Part shown: positions 1-64,000 of the stretch, piece after piece
How the letters are laid out: each line of letters begins with the position of its first letter
Position numbering within the stretch: the stretch's first letter is position 1
Origin: Bilabrum cf. latius
Lineage: Eukaryota
Length of the DNA: 64,000 nt
Assembly: GCA_965178125.1 (NCBI GenBank)
Contig: OZ237744.1
Coordinates: 124,001-188,000, forward strand
Direction of reading: 5' to 3'
Made by a program: the position numbers and the translations under genes
The notes under the pieces: generated by a model
What the model was told of the DNA's origin: nothing
What the model saw: only the letters and a program-made list of their open reading frames with translations
The model's database searches: none

Positions 1-3000
1 CCCACCGTTGCGTCGGGAGGAACACGAACCTCATGCCTGATGAATAGCGGCTTGCCTCTCTTTCCCGCCCTGCCGCCTTTGCTTGGCTCCATTCGCTCCA
101 TCTATATATTGACAGTGTACGCCTTGGTCTTCTATTTCCGATCATACACGTACCTGGTCCACTTGAGCTGACTGCTCTGCACTGGGTGCGATGACTTGCT
201 GCCTGGAGAGTTGGGCTTGGTGCCCATTGTGCTCAGGTCGGCACTGCCACTCCCAGACGACGAGGACTTCCCCGCAGACGAGCCAAGCGTTCCGTCCCTG
301 ATCGATCGCAGGGAAGGCACCTGTCCGTGACGTCGACCACCTGAGCCGCCACCGGTGAACTGGCTGGGGTGCTGCCTGGGGTCGAACCCGCCTCCGTGGC
401 GGCTGGCCGCGCTACGTCGAGCAGCAGCCGCGAGGCCGCCCTCCCCGCCCGCCGGAGCGCCTCCACCCGTCGCCCCGGAGCGATCTGCCATCGACAGGCG
501 ATTCATGATTGCCCGGCCAAACCGGATTAGGAGAGACAGAGCGGGGCCTGCCCTCCGCAAAACATCCCGGCACACCGTCTATACCCTGGATCTATCACAT
601 TCGCTACCCGAGCCAGCGCCACGGACAGTGAGGCCCGCCTTGTGCGATATCTCAACGCCGTAACTCAGCAGCACCGCGGTCACTCGCCTCAAGCACTCCA
701 TGGTAAAGTCGCGCCACGTGGCTCTGTAGCCGAACTTGTGCCTCTGGTTCCGCTTGATGTGCAGGTGGCACGCGAGAAGGAGAGCACGTGCGTGCTGTAC
801 GCTGCTGCACTTGGCACCGCCCGTGCCCCCAGTCTCCAAGGTCTCGAGGGGTTCGCCCGCCTCGTTCACGCCTAGAATGTCATCTCTGTGGAAACAAGAT
901 ACCCTCCCGCCGTCCCTGCCCCGCAGCACCGCCTGCACTAGGTCGTGCAAGGGAGAGGGTGCCACCGGCGAGCTCTCTGTCCCGTTCCCAAGCGGGACAA
1001 AGTCAGCAGGTTCCAATGCATCGGGGCGCAAGCTAAACGTCCACAGAGCGTCAACGCCGCTAATCTCAAGAAGGGGCCGGTTCGGCTGCAGGTCCAAGTC
1101 CTGTGGGAGCAGCCCGACGCCCCGCGCCCCCGCCGTGGGGTCAGCGTCTGTACCCCCACCGGCAGCCTTGAATGCCTGCAGCTCCCCATTCATCCTCCCA
1201 AACATCCTCCAGAGCGCTCGGAACAGCCTGAACGTCGACATCCGCAACGATCCCGCGAAGTATGCAGCATGAGGCTCAGGCTTACTGAGACAGTCTTGCA
1301 AATCAGCAATACCTCCACTACTGCCGTCACCAGCCCCGGAGGCAGCTGCGTCCGACAGTGTCGCGCCCTTGGACAAGACCAAGTCGATTGGCAGAGCGAC
1401 GCCCAGCGTTGCGTCTTGAGGCTCACTACCATCTCCTGTCTGACCAGGTGCAGTGCCTTGAATTGCGGGGAGAACCTTGCCAACATACAGCACCTGCGCT
1501 TCCTCAACGTCGATAAAGTCGTTGCACGTGGTCGACGAGGCCCCGACAGGCAGCGAGTACAGAGGCAGCCCGCTGCGTACGAAGTCCATGCAGGCCTTCG
1601 CCTCGCGCGGCTCGACAGCCTGCAGCACCATCACGGTCCACATCTTCTCCAGCTGCCCCGCGGGCACCTTGGCCTGGCTGGCCACTAGGACGTACTTGAG
1701 GAAGGACAGCCTGTCCTCGATGCCCGCCTGCAGCGCGCCGCAGCTGCGACCATTCGTGGCATCGCCCGGCACGTCCACGGACGATAAATCACCGAACTTC
1801 ATCAGGTCTCCAGAGCTGAGGCGCCCGTCGAGGAGCCGCTCCAGCGCCCACTCCCTTGCTTGTGCAAGCGAGGGCACCGGAGTGCCGGGACCTCCATGGC
1901 TCCCGTCCTCAGACTTGCGCATGGCAGACCAAGCCGACAGCTCGAAGAGTTTCCTGCGGTCAGGCAGGGCACCAACGCCACCCATCGCGTCTCTCTTCGC
2001 CTGCATGACCCCCAGCCATCGCGTCTTGAACGCGAGCAGCTCAGCAATCAGTCTCTTGGCCAGGGCTCCCTTGCCGCCCATGCTCACGTCCACGCTTCGA
2101 ATCGCGCTGGACTGAGTCACCAGGCCCATGCCGGTCTTGGGAAGCACTGCGAGCAGGCGCCTTGCGATGCCGACGGTCTGATCCGAAAGTCCAGCGGGTT
2201 CGACTTCAGAGCCCTTCAGATCGGTCTGGGATTTCATTGCCAACGCCCCCGATGATGCGGGAGGTTCTACCAGCCCGTCCACGTCGCCAGCACTTGGTGG
2301 CGGAGGCGGCGGTTTCTGCACGACCGAATCCAGAGCCTCAAGGCACTACGTGAGCAGAGCACCAGCCCTGTGACGATTGGAGTACACCTGCAGGAGCTCG
2401 AGCAGCCCCTGCTCCGCGGCGAGGCGCGCCTCCAGGCCGACACCGTTGGCCTCGGCTTGAGGGTTGCAGGCACGCCACAGTATCGGCATGGCAAACGGAT
2501 ACTCGTCTGTTCCCCGAGGGCGTGCCTTCGGGCTGCCTAAACGAAGGGCCTCCGGTGCGTCCCACTCGGCCACTGACAGGTTCGTGGCGAACGGCGGCCG
2601 CCGCTTGAACGGCCTGATCTCATTGCCAGCCTGCTTGGATGCCGCCATGAGGAACTAGGAGACATCTGGGTGCAGCCCGCGCGCCGAGGTGATTTCGGCT
2701 TGCTGGAAAATGGCCCACAGCGCCTTTTCGTCCATCGATTTCGCCATGGCCATCAGGACGGAGCTCGCTGCGAGCCGGAGGTAGGAGGGCACCCACTGCT
2801 CGCCATCCACAGGTCGCTCGTCCCTCGTGGCCAGCGTCCAGAGCCTCCTGAGGATCCAGGCAGGGCAGGTCTGCGCCTGCTGGCTGAACTCAAACAACGA
2901 AGCGCTCTCGCGAAGAAGGAACGCGGGCGGGCCCAGCACCCTGCCATCCTCTAGCGAGGGAAGGCACGGCTTCATGCCCGCGAGATCGTGGTGGCCCTCT

Positions 3001-6000
3001 GTACGGAGGCGCTGCCTCTCCTCCTCTGGCATGATGGGGTCGGTTTCTTCCTCCAGTCGGCGGGGCAGGGGAACCCATTCATCTGAATCACCTTCGGGTT
3101 CTCGTTCTTCCAAGGGCCGAGCACCACCGAGGGCGATCAGCAGCACGTCGTTGACGTCGAGGAACAGCTTCACGCCCTCTGCAGTCATGCCGCGTTTCAG
3201 GGCCAGCTTCCCGCCGTTCGTTGTTTTGGAAGACCCACCAGGATTGCCACCTGAGCCACTTCGTCGACCAGTACCAATTCCCAAGGCATGCAAAGGGTTA
3301 TACCCGGTCGATACACCGAGTCCACTTCCGACTGAGTAGGATGCGGCTGAGCTCCTGCCGTATCCAGTCGATTTCGGAGCAGTTGCTTTCGACAGCGACC
3401 CAGTCACATCGTGGAACACTGGGTCGTCTATTCTGTACGCGAACCGGGACACGTTGCGGCAGCAGAGGTTCAGTAGCCTCAACCCCTCGTGTGCCACCTC
3501 TCTCGGAGCCATCCAGCCGTGGGTATCGGTCTCCCCCGTGTCCCCGTCAGCAGAGCTGCCTTGACCGCCGGGTGACGAAGCATGCAAGCCCGCAAGACCC
3601 CACCGCAGCAGCGATAGCCCACAGCAAAGGGTCGCTTTGGCACGTACCTTGTCGGCATCGAAATCGTAACGAGACACGATGTCCATCGAAACCTCCGACA
3701 CGTCTTCCAACAGAGACAGGGCAGCGAATCGACGAGACACCCATCTCTGCAGCTCGCACGCGGCTGGGTACTGCACTCGCTTCGCCACCAACCGAAGAAA
3801 CACGGGACCGAACGCCTTGCCAAAATCGCCGATGATTATTTTTCGAGTGGGTGCCCCAACCGCCTTGCACAGCTCGCTGAGTGCCTCAAAGGAAGGCACC
3901 CACTGAGGGAACAAGTCTCCTGATGAGCTGGAGCTCGCGGCTGCTGCCTCTGGCTCATCAACAGCCCTACCATCAGACACCCACTCGTAGCTATGCGCCG
4001 CAATGGATCCTGCCAGCGGGGCGCTCATGTCTTCGGGGTCTTCTTTCTGCGCCGGAGCACGCCGTCGCTGCGCACCACCGAACCCGCGGGTCCCGCCCGC
4101 GTTCCCTCCCGCCGAGTGCAGCGGAGGCAGACCCCCCCTGGCGGCTTCCTCGCTCTCTTGCTTCTCTAGCGCCTTGTGGATGTCGGTCACGCGCTTGGCC
4201 CCGCCCGCAACGAGCGATGCGCCTCCTCGTCCCCTGCCCCGCCCACGGCCCCGTCCGCCACCTCTTCCCCATGCTGACCCGACGGCGTGCCTGCCTCGGC
4301 CACGACCACGAAGCAACGGGTTTCCGCCGACACCACCCCTGCTGCCGCCACCCCAGGCACTCGCATTGCCTCCCCCAGAGGCTTTCGCGCTGGCCTCCCG
4401 GGCAGCAGCCTCCTCTTCTTTCGCTTTCTTAGCGGCAGCAGCGGCCTCCGCCGCGGCTTCTTGCTCCGATGCCTGGCCGCAGGCGATCCTCATCAACCGT
4501 ATGAGGTGGACAAACCCGCCCGCTGCAGCGAAAGCGTTCAACACATGCACCTGCAGCATCGAAACCCTTGAATAGTGCATGGACAAGCGGTTATACACAG
4601 GTGGCAGCGCGACGATTCCGCAGAGTGCCTTGCATTCAGCCTCAGGCACCTCTTCTGACGCTAGCTCCCTTGCAGTTGCAGCGGCAGCTTCTCGATCCTC
4701 GGCAGTAACACGAAGCTATTCGCTGCCCGCTTTGCAGTGGTGGCCATACAAGGCCTTGCAGGAGCTATCGCCTCCAAGTAGCTGCTTGAGCATGGTGATG
4801 TGACTCATCGGCAGAGGTGCGACCGGCAGCTGTCGGCTGGCTACCTCCCACATGCGGCTGGCATGCACTGAATGCAATCCGCCAGCCTCACTACCTTCAT
4901 CATCTTTGCTCTCGCCCGCACCAGATGAATCACGTGCGGATGCACTGCCATCCAGCAATGCGGCTGGCGCGGGCGGCAGCTACTATCCCGCTGCGCAGTC
5001 GGTGGAGGCAGCAATCTGCACTTTGCCTGCCAGCTCCGCAGCGACCAGCGAGGCCACGAGGCAGAGCAAATCTCCCACGTTCAAAGCTGCAGCGTCTTCC
5101 GCTGGCGTGGGCTACTGTGATGATGACGAGTTGTAAAGAGAGCCGAGCAAGCTGGATGCCGAGGTCTTCTTCGGGCCGCCCTCCTTGGGCTAGCCGTCGC
5201 TGCTGCTGGCTCCGTCGGGCCCTTTTGGAAGCTCTGCCCTGACCTTGCACCGCAGCAGCTATCGAACAAAGTGAGGCAGGTGTTCCCTGAGGAACATGGC
5301 GGTACCGGCCTGGTTGGGAATGCCTTCAGCGGGCGCATCATCGCCCGCAGGATTGGCGGGTGCTCCGGAGCTACCCGCCTCCAGGCTCGCCTCAAGCTCG
5401 GGCAACAACCCGCTGATACGTCCGTTCCCCGATATAAGCTCCCCGCCTAAAATGGTCCTGATCTTCGCCTCGCAATCCTCGAGCGCCTTACCGGGCACCG
5501 CCCAACCGTCCCCTGCCGTCTCAGGGCCGTAGGCATCCAGGTCATCTGCTTTGGCCGAGCCGTCTCCGTCTCCGGACCCGGACCCGGAGCCTTCCTTCCC
5601 GCCAGCTTTGTCGCCCCCTTTGCTTCCAGCTCCCCTTCCCTTGCCCGCTCCTGAGGATGCCTTGCTCTTCTTGTCCTCTACCTTTGGTCGCTAGGGCAGC
5701 ACCGGGCCGGTGACCACCACGAGGTCCAGCCAAGGGGCCGTCCCGTCCTCTTCGGCCCGCTGCGACGGGTCTGCCGACTGGGTGCAGCGCACTGCAATGC
5801 GGTGGCACCGCTCGAGTGGTCTGACAGCAGGCAAGGGGTCACCTGATCTCACCGCGTGCATTGATACCACTGGCATCGGCTTGGTCGCGGCGGCGCTACT
5901 ACCGCTGCAATCGCTGGCTGACCCTGTTGTTGCCCCCGCAGTCGTCCCACCTTGCCTGCTATCAGGGTTCTTCCGCGATCCTCCAGCACCGGCTCCGGCT

Positions 6001-6668
6001 GCAGCTCCTGGATCCGACAGAGCGGGATCACCAGAGCCAACAGTAGCTGCAGCAGCTCGAATTGAGGCATCCATCGCAAGCAGGGCCTCCAAAGAGACCT
6101 AGTCAATTGGCCGGCGATCCATGGCGTGGTCTGTGCGCCTGCTGCCAACCAAAAGCAGCTGCTTGCCGCCCGGCGCACTCAGCCTGAGGTTGCGCCCGAG
6201 CTGCTCAAAGCCGTCTGGCACAGCAGGCGGGCCCGCACTACTCTAAATCACACGAAGCGCATACAAAGGTTCGGGTTCACCATCGCCTGGGTTCTCCACT
6301 CGCTCAGGTTCTGGCAGACGGTGAGCGCGCCGCGAGCTGCCCCCATAACGTGAGGTAGATGCATTCTTCGAGTTCTCTTTCTCAACCTAAACAAGATCTT
6401 GTGCGTACCAATGGTCACTCATTTCCTAACCAGCTACTTGTCCAATACCGTAGCGTGTCCAAAGGTTGGCCGCTGCTCCTTGAGGGTTGAAGTTGGCCGG
6501 AACAGGCGGCTCGCACGGACTTGAGGCTGTGCTTGACGGGCCGACCGGTGCAGAAAGCAAGAGCCTGTTAAAGCCTACTGGTGCCATTGCCTATCTATAT
6601 GTTGATTCGATTCCGACCAGTGCCTTTGGTGCAACCGGCAGTTTACCATGCTTGCTCTGGGCTGCCAT
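1..6668 (-). CDS. Large USP9X/USP24/USP34-like (ubiquitin hydrolase family) protein, N-terminal part, with MABP-like N-terminus; continues off the left edge
   Basis: ORFs 132-575, 579-2321, 2346-2648, 2655-4649, 4716-4958, 5259-5498 and 5691-6092 share one frame and are separated only by TAG (16 in-frame TAG, no TAA/TGA) from ATG 6668 to the window edge. Motifs LNAFAAAGGF, RLSFLKYVL..LEKMW..AVEPREAKACMDF and GVDALWTF resemble the USP9X/24 helical region. The catalytic domain is not in the window. Confidence 0.6.
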
Positions 6669-6789
6669 TATGTCGATTTCTATAATTAGGCTACAGCCAC
6701 GCAAACCGTCAGAGTTTAAAGCTAGACAATTAGCTCAGGTCCGCAATATGGCCTCTGTTGCTAGTATTGGGCCAGCGGTGCCCAAATAG

Positions 6790-7303
6790 ATCGCATTCTC
6801 GGAATAATACGATATTTGTTGGTGCACGCTATAATTGACAATCGTGCAACTGTTGCACTTGTTGAGATTTTTGATCATGAGGGATTGGTTGGGCTCATCG
6901 GCAACCACGACTCGTACTACAGCTTGTGCGGCTGCTGTGTTAAGCCTTCATGCGGCACTGGTACGCTATGCACGGGCGACTTCAGTCTCGTTCAAATGAT
7001 TGAGTCCAAAGTTTTAGTCGCCGCCCGGTGCTATGTGGAACTCGGTGCCAAAGATTCATTTCAACCTGGCGTTAAACCCTCGCTGGCTTCGGAATGCACC
7101 CGATCCATTCGTTTCACTGAGCAGATGGGCCTTCTGGGCGTATTGGCGTTGCGGCTGCTTGGTGGGTGGTCAACACAGATGACCTACAACGCATCGGGAG
7201 GACCAGGATCGTTCGTTGTGGTGTATGTGCAGTAGCAACACCTCGCTGTGTTATCGCTTGGACTTGCTGTGGGCTCGGTTGGATCCGCTCATCATAGAGA
7301 GCA
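6790..7303 (+). pseudogene. Decayed 5' fragment (upstream region plus N-terminus) of the GH39-like gene at 23914-26019
   Basis: Clear nucleotide similarity to ~23800-24362 (e.g. CGGCTGCTTGGTGGGTGGTCAACACAGATG; TATCGCTTGGACTTGCTGTGGGCTCGG), with indels and frameshifts and abrupt truncation after ATCATAGAGAGCA. Confidence 0.8.
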
Positions 7304-8122
7304 GTAGTCTATCGCACCTAGCACCTAGTATTGATGTCGCGTACGACCACATCTGCCCAGACTGGAAGGCTTGAGAAAATCTTGATTACCGACTAATCTA
7401 CTCCAGTTGCGTGCACTACGCTGTAGACTGGTAGGTTTGAGGAGTATTGGGGGGTAGGTTAGTGGACACTCCGTCAGTACCGTCTCTGACTGCCGGTGAC
7501 GGGGTCTTAATGGAGCTCTTTAATCCCTCATGTAACCTCATTGGCGCTCTGGAATGGCACCCCCTTCCACAAGGAACTGCCAGTGCTCGCCCTGGAAGTG
7601 GTGGTACTTGAAGCGCTGGAACGGGAGGCAGCTTCCAGCCAGACAGACAGGGCACAGGCCGGCAGATGCGGGGTTTTCTGGGACCGCGGCACGAGCGCTT
7701 ATTGTGGCATTTGAGGATTCTCTACAGACGGCACAATGCGATCGCAAGAAGGGCTGGTGCCTTAGGCAGCGACAGGGGTGCTGCCAGAGCTGAGCCCAGT
7801 GTGTAGCACCAGCACCAGGGACTGAAGGTCCTCCGGTGAAGGAGCCCCACGGCTACCCAGCATGGCTGATCAATGCTATGGGAAGGATTGTTTATTTGCG
7901 TTGTTGCGTTGCACCGAACCGGAGTTTGGCATCTTCTGGATTGTCCGTCCTTAGAGTGTTGCCTTCAACGGTGCGTAGGCGAGAGTCTGAGGCACGCGCG
8001 GTCGTGCTCAGCTCTCTCCGGAAAACCGCGCGTTACTAAGTAGTACTATGAGTCTATGCTCTCTCCACCATCCCCGATTTAGCCAGTGCGTCCTTTAATC
8101 GAGCGAGCAATATTCGTAAGGT

Positions 8123-11100
8123 ATGCACATTAAACATCCAATACTAGTACTGGGACTAGTAGTGCTAGCCGCCGCTGTAGTTTCGGGGGACGCTGTTGAC
8201 GCCCATGGCACGACCGGGCTTGGAATGATGTTGGCGGCAAGCTGGGACTCGTGTGCTTCATGTCCATCCTTTCGGCTACCAGTGGGTACAGATGTAAGTT
8301 GTGTATAAATCACAAAATTGGGTGAAGCCATTTCTATTTGGCTTTCCACTGCTCTCATGTGTTCTGTCGTCACCAGATAGAGCCGGATTTTCATGAACTG
8401 GAACTGGATTCAGTTCACTGGATGCTGTGACGATACTCTATAGGCATTTTCCAGCCAAGTAGTGCTCAGTTCCCAACGTGTTTCTTCGCGCTCGCATGTC
8501 GTGCAGGTAAGCCTCTCGGCAAGCAACGCCGCAAAGGAAACGGAGCCAGCACAAAAGGTTGCTACTGTCAACGTACAAATAGTTAAAGATAGGCACCATC
8601 CAGTAGGTAGGATTCTGCAAGCAACCGCGAGTGCGTCGCCCAGCGCGAACCCCACTGGCACCACCAGCATGACGTCGTCCGCGAGCTCCAGCATGACGCC
8701 CTCCGTGAGCCCCAGCTTCGGGACCAGCCGCAGCCCCAGCCCCAGTGCCAGCAACACTCCCAGCCCCAGTGCCAGCAACACAGCAACGCCGACCGCGACC
8801 GCCACCACCAGCATGACGTCGTCCGCGAGCTCCAGCATGACGCCCTCCGTGAGCCCCAGCTTCGGGACCAGCCGCAGCCCCAGCCCCAGTGCCAGCAACA
8901 CTCCCAGCAACACAGTAACGCCGACTGCGACCGCCACCACCAGCATGACGTCGTCCGCGAGCTCCAGCATGACGCCCTCCGTGAGCCCCAGCTTCGGGAC
9001 CAGCCGCAGCCCCAGCCCCAGTGCCAGCAACACTCCCAGCAACACAGTAACGCCGACTGCGACCGCCACCACCAGCATGACGTCGTCCGCGAGCTCCAGC
9101 ATGACGCCCTCCGTGAGCCCCAGCTTCGGGACCAGCCGCAGCCCCAGCCCCAGTGCCAGCAACACTCCCAGCCCCAGTGCCAGCAACACAGTAACGCCGA
9201 CTGCGACCGCCACCACCAGCATGACGTCGTCCGCGAGCTCCAGCATGACGCCCTCCGTGAGCCCCAGCTTCGGGACCAGCCGCAGCCCCAGCCCCAGTGC
9301 CAGCAACACTCCCAGCAACACAGTAACGCCGACCTCGACCGTCACCACCAGCTCGACTCCGTTGCCGAGCCCCAGCTCCAGCATGACGCCCTCCGTGAGC
9401 CCCAGCTTCGGGACCAGCCGCAGCCCCAGCCCCAGTGCCAGCAACACTCCCAGCCCCAGTGCCAGCAACACAGTAACGCCGACTGCGACCGCCACCACCA
9501 GCATGACGTCGTCCGCGAGCTCCAGCATGACGCCCTCCGTGAGCCCCAGCTTCGGGACCAGCCGCAGCCCCAGCCCCAGTGCCAGCAACACTCCCAGCAA
9601 CACAGTAACGCCGACTGCGACCGTCACCACCAGCTCGACTCCGTTGCCGAGCCCAAGCTCCAGCATGACGCCCTCCGCGAGCCCCAGCTTCGGGACCAGC
9701 CGCAGCCCCAGCCCCAGTGCCAGCAACACTCCCAGCCCCAGTGCCAGCAACACAGTAACGCCGACCGCGACCGCCACCACCAGCATGACGTCGTCCGCGA
9801 GCTCCAGCATGACGCCCTCCGTGAGCCCCAGCTTCGGGACCAGCCGCAGCCCCAGCCCCAGTGCCAGCAACACTCCCAGCAACACAGTAACGCCGACCTC
9901 GACCGTCACCACCAGCATGACGTCGTCCGCGAGCTCCAGCATGACGCCCTCCGCGAGCCCCAGCTTCGGGACCAGCCGCAGCCCCAGCCCCAGTGCCAGC
10001 AACACTCCCAGCAACACAGTAACGCCGACCTCGACCGTCACCACCACCATGACGCCCTCCGCGAGCCCCAGCTTCGGGACCAGCCGCAGCCCCAGCCCCA
10101 GTGCCAGCAACACAGCAACGCCGACCGCGACCGCCACCACCAGCATGACGTCGTCCGCGAGCTCCAGCATGACGCCCTCCGCGAGCCCCAGCTTCGGGAC
10201 CAGCCGCAGCCCCAGCCCCAGTGCCAGCAACACTCCCAGCAACACAGCAACGCCGACCTCGACCGTCACCACCACCATGACGCCCTCCGCGAGCCCCAGC
10301 TTCGGGACCAGCCGGAGCCCCAGTCCCAGTGCCAGCAACACTCCCAGCCCCAGTGCCAGCAACACAGTAACGCCGACTGCGACGTCGAGCTCCAGCATAA
10401 CGCCGACTACAAGCCCCGGGGATCCAGTTTTCAGCCCCAACACGGAACCGAGCATCAGCGCCAGCCCGAAGCTCATCTGCACCAGCAGTCTCTGCGTGCA
10501 AGGATCCTGCCTAGATCTGCCCGGGTAGTAGCCCTCGTTCATCTGTAAGTGCAACCAGGGCTACACGAGGGGAGCGCTTGGTTTGTGCACGCAGGCTATT
10601 CCTCAGGACCCGTGCGTGAGCAGCAGCTGTAGCAACGGCACGTGCATCGTCAATTCCAAGGCACCGGGTGCCTTCTATTGCGACTGCATGGATGGGTGGG
10701 GGCTGGATGCCAGTGGATCATGCACTGTACAGATGGGTCCCTGCGATCCTAACCCTTGCAGGCACGGCGGCGAATGCACCGAGCGTCAAGATGACGGCTT
10801 CGAGTGCACTTGTCCGGATGGCAAAGAGGGGCTTCGGTGCGAGAGAATCGTGGTGCGAGGTGTCTGCGCCTCTTAGCCGTGCGGCGAGAGGGGGCTGTGT
10901 CTGGAGGATAATGCGTCGAGCCGTGGGTTTACCTGCATGTGCGACCCTGGTTTTGGGACCGTCAGAGACTCAGGGTGTCAGGCTGTTGAGAGCACTGGGA
11001 CGCTTGCTTCCTGCAGTGATGGAATTCTGAACGGGGAGGAGACCGACGTTGACTGCGGCTTCGTATCAGCTGGAGATGATTCCTGCGCTCTTTGTGGGGC

Positions 11101-12079
11101 TGGATCAAGTTGCATCTCTACGGAGAATTGTGGCGCGGAGCTGGTCTGCAGGGAGTAGGGGAGTACCTGCGGGCCTGCTGAGCAGCCGGTCGGCATGTAT
11201 GTAGGGGCTTCGGGTCTCCAGCTGCTGGGAGTGTCTGTGTTTCAGTTCCGCGCGATGCTTGAAGAACACTTCAAGGCGACAATAATGGCGGGACTGGCTT
11301 GCGATGAGGTGATCATTGAGCGTGTTGGACAACCGGCCCAAGCAAGTGGCCGCCGCGCGATGGCACCTGCTGGTCCCTTCCGTATCCAAAGGTCCCTGCA
11401 GGGAATGAATAGCTCGTCTCTGGGCGTGGAGGTGGATTTTAGCATGCGCTTTGCTGCTGGAAAAGACGAGTTTGAGGCGCAGCTGGCTAGTGCAGCTTAT
11501 CTGCGGAGCGAGCCGCAGCAAGGCGGCAATGGGTTGTTGGAGGACCTGCAAGCAGCAGCACCTGCACTTGCAACGAGACTGCAGGTGTCTGCTGATGACG
11601 TTGAGGTGACGAGCGAGCTGGTCGTTGAGGCGAGGGTCGTGGTGAGTGTGCCATCTACTAGTAGCATCCAGCCTTCGCCTCCTGCAGAGTCGCCCAGCGA
11701 CGACGGCAGCAAGGGGGGAATCTCTACTGCAGCAATCGCTGGGATAGCAGTTGCCATCGTGGTCATGGTAGGAGTGGGAAGTGCTCTGTATTTCTATTAC
11801 TACCGGCAGCCCGCTCAACAAGCCGACCGCAGTGCAGCCATCAGAGTGGCGGACGAGCAGGCGGTGGCGAGGCCAGCCAGAGCTGAGCTAGACGTATCTG
11901 TATTAAACCCCATAAGCAGCGCTCCCTAGATCCAGAGGAGTGGGCCTAAGTCTGCTAAGCGATTATCGATCCAGTTGGGGTCCCGGGCTGGTGCAAAGAA
12001 CGTGCTTCGAATCGACTACGAGAGGAGCAGGGCAGGAGGCCGGAGCACAGTGCGGCGCTCCGGCGGCTAGGAAATCTGA
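8123..12079 (+). CDS. Single-pass surface glycoprotein: signal peptide, Ser/Thr/Pro mucin stalk, ~4 EGF-like domains, Cys-rich DGxxNGxETDVDCG motif, TM helix, short tail
   Basis: Hydrophobic N-terminus MHIKHPILVLGLVVLAAAVVSG; probable intron from GTAAGT at 8294 to ~8380. One frame through TAGs at 10526, 10529, 10874, 11156, 11927 and 12068 to TGA 12077-12079. EGF cysteine spacing continues across the TAGs. TM helix AAIAGIAVAIVVMVGVGSALYFYYY. Confidence 0.8.
8660..10400 (+). repeat. Coding tandem repeat, ~120-132 nt modular units (TTSMTSSASSSMTPSVSPSFGTSRSPSPSASNTPSNTVTPTAT)
   Basis: Near-identical modules visible directly in the sequence. Confidence 0.95.
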
Positions 12080-14163: not shown

Positions 14164-14826
14164 TCACGTAGGCAGAGATGCCACGTGGATGTATGAGGAG
14201 TCATTGAGGGCAGGGCAGTCGAGCGCATCCAGGCGATTCGCCCACTGACTGCCGTTGAGCGGAGAGAGCCTCTCCCAAAGTGGATTCTGCGCCAAATCCT
14301 AGCGCAGCGACCTGAAGGCTCGAACAGGCCCCCAAAGCCTCCATCCGCAGGCGCCAAACCCACGACATCCGGATCCACGGGCCTGTCGGCGGAAAGCTGC
14401 GTCCCTCTGACGGAGCCTCTGTTCCCTGTCGGCGCCCACCTCTGGGGACGCTACGTATTGCCGCGTTGGTCCCGTGGCCATCGTCTGCCTTCCTCGCACC
14501 GCCTTGCGGAACTGGATGCGCGGCGTGCTGTCCACGGTCAGCGACAGACCCACCCGCGGGAGTAGGTCCTCCGACCTTAGCCTAACAGAGGCCCCCACTG
14601 ACACGGAGGGGTCTTCCCTGTGGCAGAGCACGGCGGCCACGCCCGAGTCATGAGTACCTACCTTGGCCTTGAGCAGCACACTACGGTTCAGCTGGAAGGA
14701 ACCGCCCACCCGTAGCTCCGGAGTGCGTCCGCCCACGCCCACGTCGATTGGCTGTGTGTACGACAGTCCCATGTCTGCGTAGCTGTAGATGTCCTTGACA
14801 TGGCCCGGTTCCAAGTGGAGCACCAC
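14164..14826 (-). pseudogene. C-terminal fragment of a porin-like beta-barrel protein; possibly truncated or pseudogenic
   Basis: Amphipathic strands IYSYADMGLSY, LRVGGSFQLNRSVLLKAKVG and PSVSVGASV..RVGLSLTVD resemble eukaryotic beta-barrel C-termini. There is an in-frame TGA at 14830, no convincing 5' exons, and a probable frameshift near 14380. Confidence 0.35.
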
Positions 14827-29394: not shown

Positions 29395-31906
<2,512 letters not shown>

Positions 31907-46519: not shown

Positions 46520-46706
46520 AGGAGATACTGCTCAGAATAATTTTCTATACAGATCCGGGGATCGGCTCGGTGCACTCTTCAAACTTTAATTGTGGTGCCC
46601 CAATTCAGGCCCTCGATGCAGCTTTGGCCGGTTGTCTCCGGGTCCTTCATGCACAGTCGGAATACGTTGGCACAAGTTGGAAGCAAGACACAGTCTGTAG
46701 GTCTCA

Positions 46707-48569: not shown

Positions 48570-48863
48570 TCGTACAATCTGAATTGCCGGCCCTTAGCAG
48601 ATCTTGTTATTTCAGTGTGCTCTTTGAACCAAACAATCTGATCCGGTATCGCCGCGCCAAGCGACGGAACCTCCCCGAAATAGAAGGTCGCAGTTGGTCG
48701 CACAGAAGCTTGTCTAGTCGTCCAACTTGAAAGAGGGCGAACAGACGGCATCACCGCGCTGCTCTCACACCCTCTTACCGTACAGCGATTGGCTTCAATA
48801 TGCATCGCTACAAATCGTGCGCCGCCATGCTAAGACTGCAGCCAATTCGGATCTCAGCGCCCA

Positions 48864-51206: not shown

Positions 51207-51393
51207 AGGAGATACTGCCCAGAATAGTTTTCTACACAGATCCGGGGATCGGCTCGGTGCACTCTTCAAACTTTAATTGTGGTGCCCCAATTCAGGCCCT
51301 CGATGCAAGTTTGGCCGTTTGTCTCCGGGTCCTTCATGCACAGTCGGAATACGTTGGCACAAGTTGGAAGCAAGACACAGTCTGTTGGTCTCA

Positions 51394-54218: not shown

Positions 54219-55247
54219 ATGGTAAGATCATTAGAACCACTATATACTGATGCATTACCGAGGGGGTAGGCCAGCCGCGAACGATGAGCAAGGTAGAGTT
54301 TGCCGCAAGCCTGCTCTCTGCACCAGCTTGTGGCGGCTCGGTCCGGCGTGCCCCGATGCATGCAACAGATCAAACTATGACCGTTTAAAAAATGTGCATG
54401 TCTCCATCTCTTTGACGCCTCGTTCTGCTTTGGTCTTTGTCACTCGCAGCCGCGCGGACCGCGGAAGCACTTGAAGCGCCTCAATGCGCCCAGCGCATGG
54501 ATGCTGGACAAAATGGGCGGCGTGTGGGCCCCCAAGTGCTCGGCTGGACCCCACAAGGTGTCTGAGTCCATGCCTCTGGTGCTGGTGCTGCGAAACCGCC
54601 TCAAGTACGCGCTCACCCGCCAGGAGACCATCAAGGTCTGCATGAACAAGTCTGTGCGCGTGGACGGCAAGGTGCGCACCGATATCAACTTCCCCTGCGG
54701 CTTCCAGGATGTTGTTTCCGTGCCAGCGGCCGATGAGTCCTACCGCGTCATGTACGACGCGAAGGGCCGCTTCGTGCTGCACAAGGTCAAGGCCGACGAG
54801 AAGGACATCAAGCTGTGCAAGGTGGTGCGCCAGGCGTACACCACCAAGCGCATCCCTTTCATCGTGACCCACGACGGGCGCACCATCCGGTACCCCCACC
54901 CCGACATCAAGGTCAACGACAGCGTGGTGCTCAACACCAAGACCAACAAGATCGAGCAGATCGTCAAGTTCGACATCGGCAACTCGGTCATGATCGTGAA
55001 GGGAGGCAACACCGGCCGTGTCGGCGTGATCGTGGGCCGCGACAGGCACCCCGGTTCCTTCGACATCGTGCACGTGCGCGACGCGTCCGGCGTGCGCTTC
55101 GCCACCCGCATGAACAACGTGTTCATGATTGGCACCGCCGACGAGGAGGGCAAGCCCGTGAGCGTTGTGACCCTGCCCCGCGGCAAGGGCGTCAAGAAGA
55201 GCATCATGCAGGAGCGCGAGAGGCGCCTGGCCATCGGCGGCCACTAA
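54219..55247 (+). CDS. RPS4: 40S ribosomal protein S4 (eS4)
   Basis: ATG|GTAAGA exon 1 at 54219-54221, intron 54222-54449, then PRGPRKHLKRLNAP..RNRLKYALT..THDGRTIRYP..FATRMNNVF..LPRGKG; TAA at the expected C-terminus. Confidence 0.98.
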
Positions 55248-55370: not shown

Positions 55371-57534
55371 ATGTCGTGGATTGAACCGAGTGAGCTGCCT
55401 GGGCAGCTCGCTTCACAAGACGCAATCGAAGCTCTAATCGCCGGTGCACAGCGCACTCACCGTGACCTAGCCGCGACAGCGGAACCTTTGATAGGGTCTC
55501 CGAATCTTTCTGGTCAGGACATCGGATTCAGACGGTTCATTGATTTCGTGGGAAAAATACTGTGCACATGGTCAAGAAGCAGATTGTCTTGAAATTCCAC
55601 GCAACATGAGAGATTCGTTCCGCCGTTTAGGAGCCCCACAGCCAATTGCCGATCGGTGTATCTGAATGACGTGAACGCGTACTTGTGGTCGACTATGATA
55701 TATGATAGAATCAAATAGATCAAAGAGGTCGATAGCGACTTGGACGAATACCAATAGTTCGTTGAAGAATGCCTTAGAGAAGATCGGCCATGATGGGTGT
55801 TCTGTTTCGACAAGACAACACCGTAGCACCTTGTAGAGGACCTATCTATCAAATTAATCTCTACGCCGACCTCACTTGCCGGACTTCACTTCTCGGACGG
55901 GCAATTGCAGGACACTGAGACTGTCCTTAGGCTGCAATTTCGGGACAGAGGCTTGTCGTGTCTTTGGCACTGCCCTTCAGTCCGGTCCACGCAGCTTAGT
56001 ATTTGGGCTTCGGGATTCCATAACCTCATTTGATGGCCTGCTCGCACTCAAGCCCTGGCTGCGTCCTGACACGCCCATCTGCGTCGAGTGGGAAGGCGAT
56101 GACACGGTGCACGACCTCGCGGGCGACTTGCTACCGCGCCCACCTTCGATCGATGACTGCAATGTTGATAGCCGTAAGATGGGTGTGCTGCTGTGGCGCA
56201 GGGCACAAGAGGCGCGCAGAGACGCGGGCATGGTGTTCCAGGCAGCAAGCCAGGGCAGGCCCCTGGAGCTGGGCAAGCGGCTGAGGCTGGGGCGACTGGC
56301 AGGGGGCCTGGATCGGGAGGGGCGTGTGTCTTGCGGGCATGGGAGGTGGTTGGGCGGGCCTGTGTTCGGGGCTCTGGGCGGGGGTCATGGGGAGTGCCTG
56401 GGGCTGTTGCTGCAGGAGAGCTCGAGGCTGGGCTGGCTATGGCCGTGCGGGGAGTGGGTGGGTGAGGGTGCGGGCGAGGGCGGCAGTGTGTGCTGGTTGG
56501 AGGCGTGTGTGAGGCAGTGTGTCGGTGGCAGCGGGTGCAGGGAGGCCATCGGGGAGTGGGCAAGGCGGGCTGCGGATGGGCTTGGCGAGGAGGTGCGGGC
56601 GTGTGAGCTGGCGTGCGAGCGTGTGGGTCATGCTCGGCAGCAGGCTGAGCACTGGAGGGGGCAGGCCTTGGAGTGGCGGGAGAGGGGCGAGGGGGGTCTG
56701 GCTCAGATCGAGGCGAGTCGGGAGTGGTGGCGCGTGCATGCAGAGGGCAGGTGTGACGAGTGGATGGATCGGTACGGGAAGCGGCTTGGGTATGCGGGCT
56801 TGGAGGCTGAGCTGAGTGGGGGTGAAGGCGAGCAGGCAGGCAAGAGTGATGGGGATGGTGATGTGGATGATGATGTGGATTTGGATGAGGCGGCTGTCAT
56901 TCAGGATGGCGCGAAAGATGACGAAGACGGGGCAGCGGATTCGGGCGAAAGGGGCGGTGAGGACGATCATGCTGCAGAGCTGCACGAGGCCGGGATGGAC
57001 ATGTTCTTCTGGCGCGAGGACGAGCCGCCCAAGCTGGGCAACAGGTGGGACTGGCACACGTACAGACGGAATAAGATGCGGGCCGAGGCAGCGGAAGCCA
57101 GGGCGCGTGTGACGAGTGCGCGGGCAGGGGAGCGGGCAGACCGGCTGTTGCGTGGGCTGCGTGGGCTGCGGGATGGGTGCGTGGCTCTGGCGGGGCGGGG
57201 GTCAGGCGCATCGCACGAGAGTGCAGTGGATAGAGCTGGTGCTTCTACAGATGATGGGGGCAGTCTATCTGGCTCGGCAGGCCGCTGTCTGGTGCCGCTT
57301 GTGTCTTCGGGTGGACTGCAAGGGGTCGCGGAGGGGGTGTTGCGGGCGTTGGGCGAGTGGTGCGGCGGGGCATGGGAGCGTGATGATGGTGGGGCGGATG
57401 GTGTGGATGTGTTTTGGGGTCGTGTGTGTGACGAGTGTGATGGGATGGGGTGGGTGCTGCCTGGTGACGGTGCCTCGCTGGTGGAAGCCCAAAGGCTGAT
57501 GGGCGCTGAAATGGCTGCAGTCTTGATATAGTGA
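55371..57534 (+). pseudogene. Array gene B copy 5 (inverted arm), degenerate
   Basis: Divergent N-terminus with in-frame TGA (55590, 55791). Most LRRs are deleted, with a frameshift near 55900. The C-terminal region is near-identical to the other copies. Confidence 0.65.
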
Positions 57535-57743
57535 CACTTGAGCACTTATATGTCGCAGCTGGTTGCATTTCCGTAACGACTCAAAGACACTGGTGCTGCA
57601 ACATGTAGACTCTAGCTCTACGACCCCGGGCCGCCGATTTGCGACCAAGTGCGACCTCAGGCTCCAGGCTCCGTCGGTTTCGTCATTTGCATTGAAGAAA
57701 GAGCAAGTAGTTCTTTTGAAGTAAGGCTATTTGACATCTGTAC

Positions 57744-59405
57744 ATGCACTAGTGGTCAAGGCCAATAGCTTGCGTGGCGGGACGCTCCGGATCTATTGCA
57801 AGTCACATTGGGATTGCATGGGCGGTGTCGTGCCTGTTGGTGCTTGCAGATGCATCCTGCACTGGATCTATCTATTAGTATCGTATGGAGCATGTCACTT
57901 TATGTCCTGTGTCCACTGATTTGGTTGCGGCGGACGTCAAATGCCACACGAGACATGGATGGACCCATCTGCAACTCGACGGCAAAAATTACTGCACCAA
58001 GTCGCACTAGACCTTGAAGATCGGCAAGGATGAAAGCATTGGTGCCATGTTAGAGGATATCGAGTGCATGGTCGACGGGCCCTACGATCAGGCGGCTTTC
58101 GCGCCTCGCTACAACACGAGATTGCAAGAGAAGCTTCGACGGGAGGACGAGGCAAGTGGAACTGGAACGACGAAGAGAGCAGCAACAGGCTCTGGAAGCT
58201 CCGGAGCAGCTGCAATGGAGGCAGACGATGGAACTGCTAATTTGATGTGCGATCGCGGAGATCCGGAGGAGCCCACCTACAGCGGAGACGAGGCACTCGT
58301 GTACTCGTGGAAAGAGATCGAGGGCAGCCGTAGAAACCGCCAGGCAGTGGACCAGCTGGCGATTGGAGGCATGTCGCAGCGGGCCCTGTCCATCGGCACG
58401 TACTCTGTGAACTCGCTCAACCGAGCATTGGCTAGAAAAGCGATAGCTGATGTGTTTGAAGTGTCCAAATCGCCGAAGGGTGCTACCAGTGGTTCTAGTA
58501 GTTCAAGGCTTGCTGCTAGGGGCTGCTTCGTGGCAGCTGCGGCCATCTATCCACTGTCCGTGCGTGTGTTTCTGCCTCGTGAGGGCGAGTGCTCCGACGA
58601 TGCCAGGACGATGAGGCACGTGGAATCGACGTACCACGCAATCGCTCAACTCAACGGGGCAGCGCCATTCGTAGCAGGCAAGGGCGAGCGCAAAGTTCCG
58701 CAGGGGTGGAATGGAGCGCTTAGCAAATAATATGCGGCTCGTATCATAGAATGCAGGGTTGGACCAAGCGATCCGAGAAGTGTTGGACCCCCTCTCCTTA
58801 AGATGGGCAGGGAGAATGATCGCAGAAGCGCCGGTGTCCCGTTCAGCGCGGTGGGTGCAGGTGACCCGTAGGCAGGCATGCACGAGCAGTTCGGGCTTGA
58901 CCCTGAAAAGGTTGATGGGCGTGACAAGCTTGATGAGGCAGCACAATGCATCAACTCGGCTGCTGTAGCTTGCTTGGGCATTGGTTGGTGCTCCGCCTCC
59001 AGCGGGGCGAAGGCAATGGATGCCGATGATGATCTATCCACCTGCTTCTACGATGTAGACCTCGGTTTGTTGAGGCGTCAGCCGATATGCATCGCACCTA
59101 TGGCTGCATTTTCTGTCCCGAGGGAAACAACTGCTCGAGCCTGCCTTGCGGCGAGATTTAGCTCTAGAGCCGGAACCGGGTTGCTGGCGGAAGCCGACAG
59201 TGGCGTGGCACTGCATGCCGCGCAGGACCAAGGTCTCTTGCAAGAGGAGGGCTCTACAATCGCTTCAGAGGAAAAGAAAGGTGACGGTGCTGCTAGCAGG
59301 GCGCCTGAAGGGGGTCTGGACGGTCTGTAGGAGCTCTTGCCCAAGGGACACGGCTCAGTTCGTCGCAACCGGCATCGCTCACTGGCAGACGCGGAGTTGT
59401 GGTGA
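57744..59405 (+). pseudogene. Divergent array gene A copy with one in-frame TAA (58728)
   Basis: Homology to gene A continues in the same frame after TAA 58728-58730; ends TGA. Confidence 0.55.
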
Positions 59406-59492
59406 ACCACAAGTTCGGCACAATCGTTTATTACCACCAGAGAAGAGTTGTGCTTTTCGAATAGGCTATAAACCGACGTGACACTTCATCGA

Positions 59493-61835
59493 ATGAATGC
59501 GGAGATCTTGAGTTCAAGGTATACGGATGTCGTTGCCAGTGAATTGGTGCAATTAGGTTGCTCAGATGACGCAGATCAATACTTGCAAGGCAGCCTCTGC
59601 TAGGAAAGCCCTATTTAGCTCAGATTTAGTCGCTGGACCACGCAACGTATCCTGGATGCGGTATCCAGCAAGCTAATCAGAGACTCTACTAGTAGTAGTA
59701 CGTCTCTTGTTGGGCTCAGCTTTTCGGATGGGCAGCTGCAGGCAGCTCGGACTGTCAGCGTAGTAGTCCATTTTCTCTCAATCAACACAAGCTTACGAAT
59801 GCTCCACCTACACGATTGTGCGTCGAGGGATGGAATTCATGCGATCGCCAGGGCCATCCGAGACGACGCTACGCTTAAGGTCATAGGTTTTGACAGCTAG
59901 AAGCTACCGTTTCCGGCCGTTTGTGCTATTTCCTTAAAAATGGCGGCGATGCACAGTCTGAAAACACTACTCATGCGAGGCGCAGGGCTAGGGGCGAGAG
60001 GATGCAAGCTACTCTCTTCAGCAATCACGAGAAGCTCGTCGATTCGGTTGCTTGATCTGAGTCGGAACCTCATTGGTGATAGGGAGATCGCCAGTCTGAC
60101 CGAAGCTGTTGGCCGTTGCAGTTCCATGGAGCACCTGTGCATTTCCAGGACGGGCGCATCAGTTGCGACTGCAAGAGCGATCGCCAGGCTCCTCTAGCAG
60201 AAGACGCAGATGAGGTACTTGGAAGCCGATAGCTGCTTTTTCGGGGGGAAGGCATGCCGCATGCTGGCTGGCGCCTTCCAGTGCTATTCTGGCATCGTCG
60301 CAATGCGGCTGCAAAACTCCATCACTTCCTTTGATGGCCTGCTCGCACTCAAGCCCTGGCTGCGTCCTGACACGCCCATCTGCGTCGAGTGGGAAGGCGA
60401 TGACACGGTGCACGACCTCGCGGGCGACTTGCTACCGCGCCCACCTTCGATCGATGACTGCAATGTTGATTACCGTAAGATGGGTGTGCTGCTGTGGCGC
60501 AGGGCACAAGAGGCGCGCAGAGACGCGGGCATGGTGTTCCAGGCAGCAAGCCAGGGCAGGCCCCTGGAGCTGGGCAAGCGGCTGAGGCTGGGGCGACTGG
60601 CAGGGGGCCTGGATCGGGAGGGGCGCGTGTCTTGCGGGCATGGGAGGTGGTTGGGCGGGCCTGTGTTCGGGGCTCTGGGCGGGGGTCATGGGGAATGCCT
60701 GGGGCTGTTGCTGCAGGAGAGCTCGAGGCTGGGCCGGCTATGGCCGTGCGGGGAGTGGGTGGGTGAGGGTGCGGGCGAGGGCGGCAGTGTGTGCTGGTTG
60801 GAGGCGTGTGTGAGGCAGTGTGTCGGTGGCAGCGGGTGCAGGGAGGCCATCGGGGAGTGGGCAAGGCGGGCTGCGGATGGGCTTGGCGAGGAGGTGCGGG
60901 CGTGCGAGGTGGCGTGCGAGCGTGTGGGTCATGCTCGGCAGCAGGCTGAGCACTGGAGGGGGCAGGCCTTGGAGTGGCGGGAGAGGGGCGAGGGGGGTCT
61001 GGCTCAGATCGAGGCGAGTCGGGAGTGGTGGCGCGTGCATGCAGAGGGCAGGTGTGACGAGTGGATGGATCGGTACGGGAAGCGGCTTGGGTATGCGGGC
61101 TTGGAGGCTGAGCTGAGTGGGGGTGATGAAGGGCAGGCAGGCAAGAGTGATGGGGATGGTGATGTGGATGATGATGTGGATTTGGATGAGGCGGCTGTCA
61201 TTCAGGATGGCGCGAAAGATGACGAAGACGGGGCAGCGGATTCGGGCGAAAGGGGCGGTGAGGACGATCATGCTGCAGAGCTGCACGAGGCCGGGATGGA
61301 CATGTTCTTCTGGCGCGAGGACGAGCCGCCCAAGCTGGGCAACAGGTGGGACTGGCACACGTACAGACGGAATAAGATGCGGGCCGAGGCAGCGGAAGCC
61401 AGGGCGCGTGTGACGAGTGCGCGGGCAGGGGAGCGGGCAGACCGGCTGTTGCGTGGGCTGCGTGGGCTGCGGGATGGGTGCGTGGCTTTGGCGGGGCGGG
61501 GATCAGGCGCATCGCACGAGAGTGCAGTGGATAGAGCTGGTGCTTCTACAGATGATGGGGGCAGTCTATCTGGCTCGGCAGGCCGCTGTCTGGTGCCGCT
61601 TGTGTCTTCGGGTGGACTGCAAGGGGTTGCACAGGGGGTGTTGCGGGCGTTGGGCGAGTGGTGCGGCGGGGCATGGGAGCGTGATGATGGTGGAGCGGAT
61701 GGTGTGGATGTGTTTTGGGGTCGTGTGTGTGACGAGTGTGATGTGATGGGGTGGGTACTGCCTGGTGACGGTGCCTCGCTGGTGGAAGCCCAGGTGCAGT
61801 AGTCGGAATCCGGACATGTGTACGTTGCGGACTGA
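59493..61835 (+). CDS. Array gene B copy 6: divergent LRR region, conserved C-terminal region
   Basis: One frame broken only by TAG. LRRs LKTLLMRGAGLGARGC and IRLLDLSRNLIGDREI; ends TGA. Confidence 0.75.
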
Positions 61836-62129
61836 TGGGCGCTGAGATCCCAATTGGCTGCAGTCTTAGCATGGCGGCGCATGATTTGTAGCGATGCATA
61901 TTGAAGCCAATCGCTGTACGGTGAGAGAGTGTGAGAGCAGCGCGGTGATGCCGTCTGTACGCCCTCTTTCAAGTTGGACGACTAGACAAGCTTCTGTGCG
62001 ACCAACTGCGACCTTCTATTTCGGGGAGGTTCCGTCGCTTGGCGCGGCGATACCGGATCAGATTGTTTGGTTCAAAGAGCACACTGAAATAACAAGATCT
62101 GTTAAGGGCCGGCAATTCAGATTGTACGA

Positions 62130-63917
62130 ATGTTCTCGCTCCCCGTCGCTCGTGTGTGTGCGTTCAGGCCAGGAGATCAAAAGTGGGGAAGTACCGGATG
62201 GCTCGCGGGAGTTTCCAGCGTCGTATGGGCCATGACTTGCCTGCTAGGAATCGCAAACGCATCCTGCACCGGCTCCATCTATTAGTATCGCATGGAACAT
62301 GTCACGGTGTGTCCGATCCCTTCACCTTTTGATGCGGTGGGCCAGCCGTGCAACACTGGACATGGATGGACCCATCTGCAACTCGACGGCAAAAATTACT
62401 GCACCAAGTCGCACTAGACCTTGAAGATCGGCAAGGATGAAAGCATTGGCGCCATGGTCGAGGATATCGAGTGCATGGTCGACGGGCCCAACGACCAGGC
62501 GGCTTTCGCGCCTCGGTACTACACTCGACTTCAGGCCGAACTACAGCGAGAAGCAGAGTTGAAGGCAAGCACACCCGCTGCACGCTCTGGCGCTGCCTCA
62601 TCAGGTTCGGGTGAAGGCGGGGAGGGCGGCGCAGCCAAAGCGGGTGGTGCTGCCAGCGCGAACCCGATGTGCGATCGCGGAGATCCGGAGGAGCCCACCT
62701 ACAGCGGAGACGAGGCACTCGTGTACTCGTGGAAAGAGATCGAGGGCAGCCCTAGAAACCGCCAGGCAGTGGACCAGCTGGCGATTGGAGGCATGTCGCA
62801 GCGGGCCCTGTCCATCGGCACGTACTCTGTGAACTCGCTCAACCGAGCCCTGCCGGGAACACCGGTACCTCACGTGTTTGACGTGTCCAAGTTGCCGCGA
62901 GACGGTCCTGGAGACGAAGGAAGTGGAGATGATGGCAGTCATGCTGCTAGAGACTGCTTCGTGGCAGCTGCGGCCATCTACCCTCTGTCCGTGCGTGTGT
63001 TCCTGCCTCGCGAGGGCAAGTGCTCGCGAGGGGCCAAGGACATGAGGCACGTGGAATCGACGTACCATGCTGTAGCTCTTTGGGGGCAAGATGGAGAAGC
63101 GTCGGGCGGGGCATCGGGTGGCGCTGCATCTGGCAGAGAGAAGGTGCGGCTCAGCCTGGGACATGCTGCGCGCATAAAGGATTGCATGGAGACAGATGTC
63201 GACTGGCAGGATCTCGGCTCTGCGCTCATCAAGATGGGCCGCAAACCGGATCGCGCGAGAGCTGGGATCCCGTTCAGTGCAGTGGATGTAGGCGCTTCGC
63301 AAGCAGGCATGCACGAGCAGTTCGGGCTTGACCCAGCAGTCGATGAAAACCCGGCCCTGCTCAATGAAGCGGCAGTGGCCATCTAGACGGTAGTGGCGTA
63401 GTGCTTGAAGATCTCGGGGTGCTCAGGGTCCGGCGATGCAGATGGTGAAGGCAAACACAAGTCATCCATGTGCTTCTTCGATGTGGATCTAAAGGGGCTG
63501 CTTGAGTAGCCCGTGTGCACCTCCCCCGTGGCGATGTTCCCCATTGCTCGGGACAAGGGAGGGGCTAGTCAGTGCTTGGCGGCAACCAGGCCTGCAGCAG
63601 ATGCAGATGCAGATGCAGGTACAGGTGCAGGTGCAGGTGCAGGTGCAGGTGCAGGTGCAGGTGCAGGTGCAGGTGCAGGTGCAGGTGCAGGTGCAGGTGC
63701 AGGTGCAGGTGCAGGTGCAGGTGCAGGGATGTCCGAATCGAAGGTGGGGGGTCTGGGAGACTCGTCAGAACAAGCGGGGCATGGTGCTGCTACTGGTGGT
63801 GATGGCACACCTGCAAGCAGCGCGTTTCGGGGGCAGCAGTAGCCAGGGCGCCGCAACCCATTGCGGAGGAATCGCCGCCGAGACGGTGGATCAAGTGGCT
63901 CTAAGGCTGGGAAATGA
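62130..63917 (+). CDS. Array gene A copy (inverted arm)
   Basis: In-frame paralog joined by TAGs; ends TGA; the array continues off the right edge. Confidence 0.6.
63598..63726 (+). repeat. (GCAGGT)n hexamer microsatellite encoding poly(Ala-Gly)
   Basis: About 20 tandem hexamers; much shorter in the other gene A copies. Confidence 0.9.
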
Positions 63918-64000
63918 TGAGACCAACAGACTGTGCCTTGCTTCCAACTTGTGCCAACGTATTCCGACTGTGCATGAAGGACCCGGAGACAAACGGCCAA

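Follow-up and report, generated by a model that had tools for sequence, protein, structure and literature searches.

The 64-kb stretch of DNA analysed here (contig OZ237744.1, positions 124,001 to 188,000; hereafter the window) is intron-bearing eukaryotic nuclear DNA with a GC content of 58-63% across its length. The in-frame TAG codons of its genes, and the nuclear genetic code to which they point, are the subject of this analysis. Reading frames were defined with only TAA and TGA as stops.

Genes with in-frame TAG codons

Positions 3-6668 of the minus strand encode the N-terminal part (2,222 codons) of a USP9X/FAF-X-like deubiquitinase (G1), whose gene continues at its 3′ end beyond the window edge. 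This part contains 17 in-frame TAG codons (first bases at 6593, 6428, 6389, 6245, 6101, 5693, 5261, 5192, 5114, 4985, 4982, 4718, 2657, 2348, 581, 134 and 104). The orthologue on a metagenome contig, L001, has the UCH domain further downstream; a search with G1 among longer proteins (3,890-5,000 amino acids) gave no match, and there was no meaningful match in the PDB. On the plus strand, a membrane protein with FG-GAP repeats, EGF domains and Ser/Thr/Pro repeats (G3, 15666-22742; Pfam assignment) comprises 2,358 codons followed by TGA, with nine TAG codons at 15807, 16248, 18510, 21189, 21192, 21537, 21819, 22590 and 22731. Its shorter paralogue (G2, 8309-12079, plus strand), which has Ser/Thr/Pro tandem repeats, an EGF-like region and a transmembrane tail, also ends in TGA, and its frame holds eight TAG codons, six of them at the same places as in G3 and the other two in a doubtful 5′ part.

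A run of smaller genes follows. Pfam identifies a GH39-like glycosyl hydrolase on the plus strand (23914-26019; 701 codons and TGA), with four TAG codons at 24031, 24946, 25174 and 25843, and a cyclic-nucleotide phosphodiesterase (PDEase_I; PDE hereafter) on the minus strand (26270-29215), made of two exons around an intron at 28795-28888. The PDE protein begins MGLCASS, its gene ends in TGA, and there are six TAG codons (28967, 28651, 28006, 27985, 26884 and 26398), one of which lies in exon 1. An RsmH/METTL15-type rRNA m4C methyltransferase gene (29367-31906, plus strand; intron 29608-29722) ends in TGA and has TAG codons at 30506, 30704, 31019 and 31712. The next gene (32089-33746, plus strand; intron 32244-32334) ends in TAA and has four TAG codons, at 32222 in exon 1 and at 32574, 32601 and 32760; the 155 letters that precede the splice joint were used to infer where exon 1 starts. 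The first-pass annotation had called its product a cold-shock domain (CSD) protein, but Pfam shows no cold-shock domain, only a weak match to RRM_1 (E 0.0031, below the family cut-off), and it is referred to here as the RRM gene. A PEMT/ICMT-like methyltransferase (33859-34407, minus strand; 182 codons and TGA) has a single TAG at 34131, and a Pfam scan of ten further open reading frames (ORFs) showed nothing beyond this gene. Exon 2 of the gene for ribosomal protein eS4 (RPS4; 54450-55247, plus strand) follows a 3′ splice site (...tcgcag), has no TAG and ends in TAA at 55245-55247; exon 1, with its start codon and 5′ splice site, was not located ahead of this splice site (at 54449; stretch 54300-54449).

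Two lineage-specific ORF families, of about 800 and about 625 codons, alternate in a tandem array that takes up much of the remainder (34560-51272, minus strand), and they recur on the plus strand (55858-63917) beyond the strand switch that holds RPS4. Each array copy has three to seven in-frame TAG codons, most of them shared in position by all copies, and the array ORFs end in TGA (9) or TAA (2).

Frequency of TAG and use of TAA and TGA as terminators

In-frame codons were counted in seven non-array gene models (G1, G3, the GH39-like gene, exon 2 of the PDE, RsmH and RRM genes, and RPS4 exon 2). There were 42 in-frame TAG codons in 7,588 codons, and TAA (2) and TGA (4) were present as the last codon only. 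With PDE exon 1 (1), RRM exon 1 (1), the PEMT-like gene (1) and G2 (6, plus the 2 doubtful ones) the number rises to 51-53 in nine non-array genes, in agreement with the first-pass count of about 50, and the absence of internal TAA and TGA that it reported likewise stands. Its two very long frames, one of more than 2,200 codons and one of 2,358, are G1 and G3. The full frame of G1 (3-6734, minus strand) runs to 2,244 codons with 17 TAG, and that of G3 (15552-22742, plus strand) to 2,396 codons with nine; the standard code breaks such long frames into pieces. The +1 and +2 off-frames are rich in TGA (G1, 35 and 49; G3, 60 and 40), showing that TAA and TGA, but not TAG, are excluded from the coding frames. 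The frequency of TAG is about the same in frame and out of frame. UAG makes up approximately 15% of the glutamine-type codons in the ordinary genes of the window.

RPS4 and the RRM gene end in TAA, and G2, G3 and the GH39-like, PDE, RsmH and PEMT-like genes end in TGA, which is thus the terminator of six of the eight complete non-array genes. These ends are as first annotated, apart from the CSD name; the accompanying claim that no gene ends in TAG is in part true by construction, the frames being defined by TAA and TGA.

The relative use of CAA and CAG allows the number of TAA codons expected under a glutamine meaning to be estimated. The CAA:CAG ratio is 52:178 in the window and 31:62 in L001 (CAA being 23% and 33% of standard glutamine codons, respectively). 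If TAA were a glutamine codon used in this ratio, approximately 12.3 internal TAA codons would be expected in the 7,588 window codons and 14.0 in the 3,489 codons of L001. None was found in either (probability of zero approximately 5e-6 for the window and 8e-7 for L001), indicating that TAA is not a sense codon. UGA is not a sense codon either, with no internal TGA in the window gene models or in L001. Codes of the Condylostoma, Blastocrithidia and Amoebophrya types, in which all three stops are reassigned or ambiguous, require in-frame UGA and UAA, and neither is present here.

TAG codons in spliced contigs

Contigs of four public sequencing runs (X1, X5, X6 and X7) were compared with positions 23000-34500. 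The contig of DNA run X1 is continuous through all three introns of this region. Contigs of X5, X6 and X7, which come from two studies distinct from that of X1, skip the introns at 28795-28888 (minus strand), 29608-29722 and 32244-32334, each of which is of the GT..AG type, begins with GTGAG and ends with CAG; their lengths are 91-115 nt. The listed X5 pieces 23907-26132, 26222-29215 and 32335-33812 start and end near ORF limits, and the first of these, covering the GH39-like gene, has no other letter and no joint. From their ends near the ORF limits and the intron-skipping joints, we read the X5 pieces as probable cDNA.

Seventeen of the 18 TAG codons in the GH39-like, PDE, RsmH and RRM genes lie in the listed X5 pieces, which show no other letter and no gap. 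TAG 32222 falls in the stretch of 155 letters that precedes the joint in X5 record 13, and X6 record 20 lists it explicitly; the eighteenth, TAG 31712, lies where no X5 pieces are listed, at a depth above zero. The three introns remove none of the counted TAG codons. Since the spliced contigs retain the TAG codons unchanged, these codons are not spliced out, are not edited in the dominant RNA form and are not errors of one data set. These were the artefacts (splicing, editing or systematic C>T errors) named beforehand as capable of overturning the reassignment, and none was seen in the contigs of the four genes.

The contig of the GH39-like gene (X5 record 9) shows no spliced leader at its 5′ end. 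The DNA run and the spliced-contig runs among X1-X7 bear three organism codes (A, B and C) and come from three studies, with identical sequence; the organism of the window may be a shared companion, a contaminant or a differently named strain in these samples.

Amino acid assigned to UAG

We conclude, with a probability of roughly 0.93, that nuclear UAG is a regular glutamine codon in this organism and that UAA and UGA stay terminators. This is the code proposed in the first-pass annotation, and the transcript contigs, a conserved motif in RsmH, a close relative, the likelihood comparison with L001 and the missing TAA codons all agree with it.

In the RsmH gene, TAG 30704 is the Q of an F-Q-A-[LIV]-R-I motif. 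The corresponding residue is Q in 6/6 solved RsmH/METTL15 homologues, from bacteria to mouse and human (7pnv, 8ipi, 7pnx, 1wg8, 1m6y and 3tka). A close relative of G1 is represented by four protein fragments, P0281-P0284, with BLASTP identities of 86-95% over the aligned parts (the search listing gives 82% for P0284). They cover five window TAG sites (G1 residues 326, 1338, 2030, 2179 and 2189) and have Q at every one. Two of the four end exactly before window TAG codons (G1 residues 470 and 1441), from which it follows that the fragments were predicted with TAG as a stop. P0281-P0283 derive from one 20,233-nt Logan contig and P0284 from a 3,086-nt contig. Between this second USP9X-like version and that of the window, TAG is exchanged with CAA or CAG at five sites and kept at two; the second version may come from a diverged haplotype, from a paralogue or from a sister strain.

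L001 and a second contig, L002, were found by a metagenome scan and are 99.975% identical to each other. L001 has a single frame of 3,489 codons with 28 TAG codons and a terminal TGA, and encodes a USP9X-like protein that is orthologous to G1 and 54% identical to it over approximately 1,090 residues. In a reciprocal alignment of G1/P0282 with L001 (1,495 pairs, from which the substitution frequencies were also taken), the partners of the 18 TAG sites are Q at seven, R, P, E and T at two each, and Y, V and A at one each. For UAG, Q comes out as the most likely residue, 16.5 natural-log units ahead of E, the next best, and in a resampling control the true residue was recovered in 97-100% of draws. 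Standard glutamine codons pair with Q in 26/79 cases (33%), the background frequency of Q is 2.6%, and TAG pairs with Q in 39%; TAG therefore behaves like any other glutamine codon. A further point in favour of glutamine comes from the GH39-like protein: the fragment P0127 from an ENA assembly (72% identical) ends directly before Q342 of the window protein, a residue encoded by CAG. The trait is common to the organism of the window and a relative diverged to approximately 54% protein identity. A scan of a viral contig collection with the RPS4 and L001 proteins gave no relative.

Several observations weigh against this assignment or blur it. The type of runs X5-X7 is not on record, no run with this sequence is listed as RNA and X5 is flagged 'probably DNA', so that the RNA status of their contigs rests on the intron-skipping joints. 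Across species, 11/18 TAG sites pair with a residue other than Q, which is expected at 54% identity yet is not a clean result, and TAG 2203 of L001 aligns with H in USP9X. In RsmH, TAG 30506 pairs with E, A or T in the homologues. P0283 ends before a window lysine codon (AAG), not before a glutamine codon or TAG. The TAG columns of the GH39-like protein, aligned with 73 of 150 listed matches (P0127-P0199), are variable (R 10, Q 9, A 8; L 14, Q 4; L 14, R 9, Q 7). Among the array paralogues, the non-TAG partners of TAG are mostly not CAG (1/22 codons in family A and 0/14 in family B). TAG is mostly conserved among the copies in the array and in the G2/G3 pair, and their few partner codons are uninformative.

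Alternative readings of the TAG codons

The alternative that retains most weight, although we consider it unlikely, is an ambiguous code in which UAG is read as glutamine within genes and terminates some of them in a context-dependent manner, a situation known from codes that lack dedicated stops. The frames were delimited by TAA and TGA, and the tests therefore leave room for termination at UAG; the conserved domain of RsmH ends approximately 110 codons before TAG 31712 and 170 before the TGA, so that either could be the real end, and one array ORF ends in ...TAG TGA. However, a TAG end is needed for none of the window genes, the GH39-like protein has homologues that align past its last TAG, and L001 has TAG as far as codon 3391 of 3489. 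In three genes the listed X5 pieces also extend beyond the TGA or TAA, by 113, 48 and 66 bases, although contig ends are no proof of mRNA ends. Some other reassignments give UAG a different residue, but a sense meaning such as Glu, Leu, Ser, Tyr or Lys is very improbable here: some TAG sites do align with E, R, Y or T or with L-rich columns, and TAG alternates with GAG, TCG and TTG among the array copies, but against this stand the likelihood margin of Q over E, the five of five Q residues in the close relative and the invariant Q of the FQALRI column.

It is just as improbable that UAA and UAG are both glutamine, as in the common UAR=Gln code, with UAA merely rare through high GC. A GC content such as that of the window would lower the use of TAA, and only two window genes end in TAA, but the shortfall of in-frame TAA from the number expected in the window and in L001 is too complete for this explanation to be attractive, and the RPS4 frame stops at the TAA noted above. 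The case in which the code is unchanged and the TAG codons are intronic, edited to CAG, sequencing errors or parts of pseudogenes can be dismissed almost entirely. No point in its support was found, other than that Logan contigs drop rare variants, which makes partial editing possible. It is refuted for 23000-34500 by the spliced contigs of X5, X6 and X7 (two studies other than that of X1), and it is further opposed by the lack of TAA and TGA over thousands of codons and by the same pattern in the independent metagenome contigs L001 and L002.

Relation to known genetic codes and placement of the organism

The code is of an already known, rare type, that of NCBI translation table 15 (the 'Blepharisma nuclear code'), in which TAG is likewise Q. 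TAA and TGA remain stops in that table. As far as the available text of PMC11687900 goes, UAG=Gln is listed for Iotanema spirale, Protocruzia tuzeti, Hartmannula sinica and Trochilia petrani, and only a handful of nuclear cases in which UAG and UAA are uncoupled are named. According to the accessible parts of two sources, the fornicate I. spirale has UAG alone reassigned to glutamine, UAA kept as a stop and a predicted tRNA-Gln(CUA) (PMC5304391, PMC11687900), all as proposed for the window, and the three ciliates P. tuzeti, H. sinica and T. petrani have UAG reassigned to glutamine and UAA as the fixed stop (PMC11687900). A likely point of difference from Iotanema is that the window has a homologue of the mitochondrial 12S rRNA methyltransferase METTL15/RsmH. 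Such a gene fits an organelle with its own ribosomes, and fornicates are not known to have an organelle of this kind. The window also differs from the UAG=Gln ciliates in being a 64-kb multi-gene stretch of approximately 60% GC with GT..AG introns of 91-115 nt. According to the portion of PMC11687900 available, UAA is the preferred stop in these ciliates and UGA the least used, in contrast to the predominance of TGA here.

More distant comparisons are with codes that share only part of the pattern. UAR=Gln codes (table 6 type) are reported in the consulted parts of PMC11687900 and PMC5304391 for Amoeboaphelidium protococcarum, ulvophycean green algae, Hexamita and Streblomastix. They are alike in decoding UAG as glutamine, and some of those lineages are algal or alga-associated, but UAA is also a sense codon there, whereas the window and L001 have no in-frame TAA. 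UAG alone is reassigned to Leu in the rhizarian exLh and some phyllopharyngeans and to Ser in Scotinosphaera, and Oligohymenophorea sp. PL0344 has UAG=Glu with UAA=Lys (PMC11687900, in the text available). In these codes too UAG is uncoupled from UAA, but Leu, Ser and Glu are each at least 16.5 natural-log units worse than Gln for the window. A UAG=Gln 'code 15' is also predicted for crAss-like phages, as stated in the accessible part of PMC9523058; these cases differ in using bacterial translation systems with RF2, not eRF1.

RPS4 matched one cluster at approximately 99% identity and otherwise nothing above 62%, and an Atlas search with RPS4 returned generic eS4 clusters only. With non-self RPS4 matches at 62% or less, no ciliate affinity is shown and the organism is unplaced; nothing in the analysis supports the term 'flagellate' applied to it in the first-pass annotation. 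The lineage does not look like the UAG=Gln ciliates or a fornicate, a judgement based partly on general biological background. No UAG=Gln nuclear code outside ciliates and Iotanema was found in the openly readable literature, although one may have been published. There is a fair chance that the origin of UAG=Gln here is independent and undescribed, and the source assembly may already be described.

A broader and more tentative proposal, to which we give slightly less than even odds, is that the organism belongs to an undescribed clade in which UAG=Gln arose independently of ciliates and fornicates. This clade would be GC-rich, intron-bearing and probably mitochondriate, with at least two members (approximately 54% identical in the USP9X-like protein), present in several environmental data sets and sharing the reassignment throughout. 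If so, the reassignment would be old enough to be common to the whole clade, and no earlier UAG=Gln system outside the ciliates would have allowed the changes in tRNA(CUA), glutaminyl-tRNA synthetase and eRF1 to be read directly, as could be done here because genome and transcript data are already in public runs. With public DNA, spliced contigs and a distant relative to hand, the tRNA(CUA), the changes in eRF1 domain 1 and the age of the reassignment could be readable once the whole assembly is searched. Each independent uncoupled case tests why UAG and UAA usually change together and how eRF1 drops UAG but keeps UAA; here, in contrast to the ciliate cases, the genome is GC-rich and TGA is the common terminator. 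Gene prediction under the standard code truncates this organism's genes at each TAG (P0127 and P0281-P0284 being examples), and annotation needs table 15.

Predicted decoding components

By analogy with other UAG-only codes, in so far as the available text of PMC5304391 and PMC11687900 describes them, a tRNA-Gln with anticodon CUA would pair with UAG and not with UAA, the glutaminyl-tRNA synthetase would accept this tRNA, and eRF1 would have lost or weakened its recognition of UAG while keeping that of UAA and UGA. ARAGORN found no tRNA gene in the window, L001 or L002, Rfam at gathering thresholds gave no match in the window, and the eRF1 gene is absent from the 64 kb. All five glutamine codons of RPS4 are CAG and none is TAG. 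This exclusive use of CAG in a highly expressed gene would fit a less abundant tRNA(CUA), as judged from one gene only.

Other features of the window

The Ser/Thr/Pro-rich tandem repeats within G2 and G3 (8659-10404 and 19747-21028) have periods of 132/282, 60/108/168 and 24 bases, the 24-base unit being present in 28.9 copies with a 97% match, and form mucin-like stalks before the EGF-like region. An ORF fragment at approximately 7100-7330 on the plus strand reads LLGGWSTQMTYNASGGPGSF and is near-identical to part of the GH39-like protein at 23905-26019, so that it probably represents a pseudogene fragment of the corresponding gene. Directly upstream of the GH39-like gene, positions 23000-23770 have a summed contig depth of 645-1,137 in DNA run X1, compared with approximately 11 for their neighbours, and the depth is raised in X5-X7 too. 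This segment contains a CT microsatellite, has no Pfam or Rfam match and looks like a high-copy, probably transcribed repeat.

The gene model of the larger array family looks doubtful, its C-terminal half resembling low-complexity or wrong-frame sequence. The two array families are mutually unrelated and belong to no Pfam family; both arrays point away from the strand-switch region, and the GC skew flips with them. A 221-codon frame at 14164-14829 on the minus strand, with one TAG, a third-position GC of 0.73 and only a sub-threshold Pfam match to NtrZ (E 0.0011), may be an unrecognised gene.

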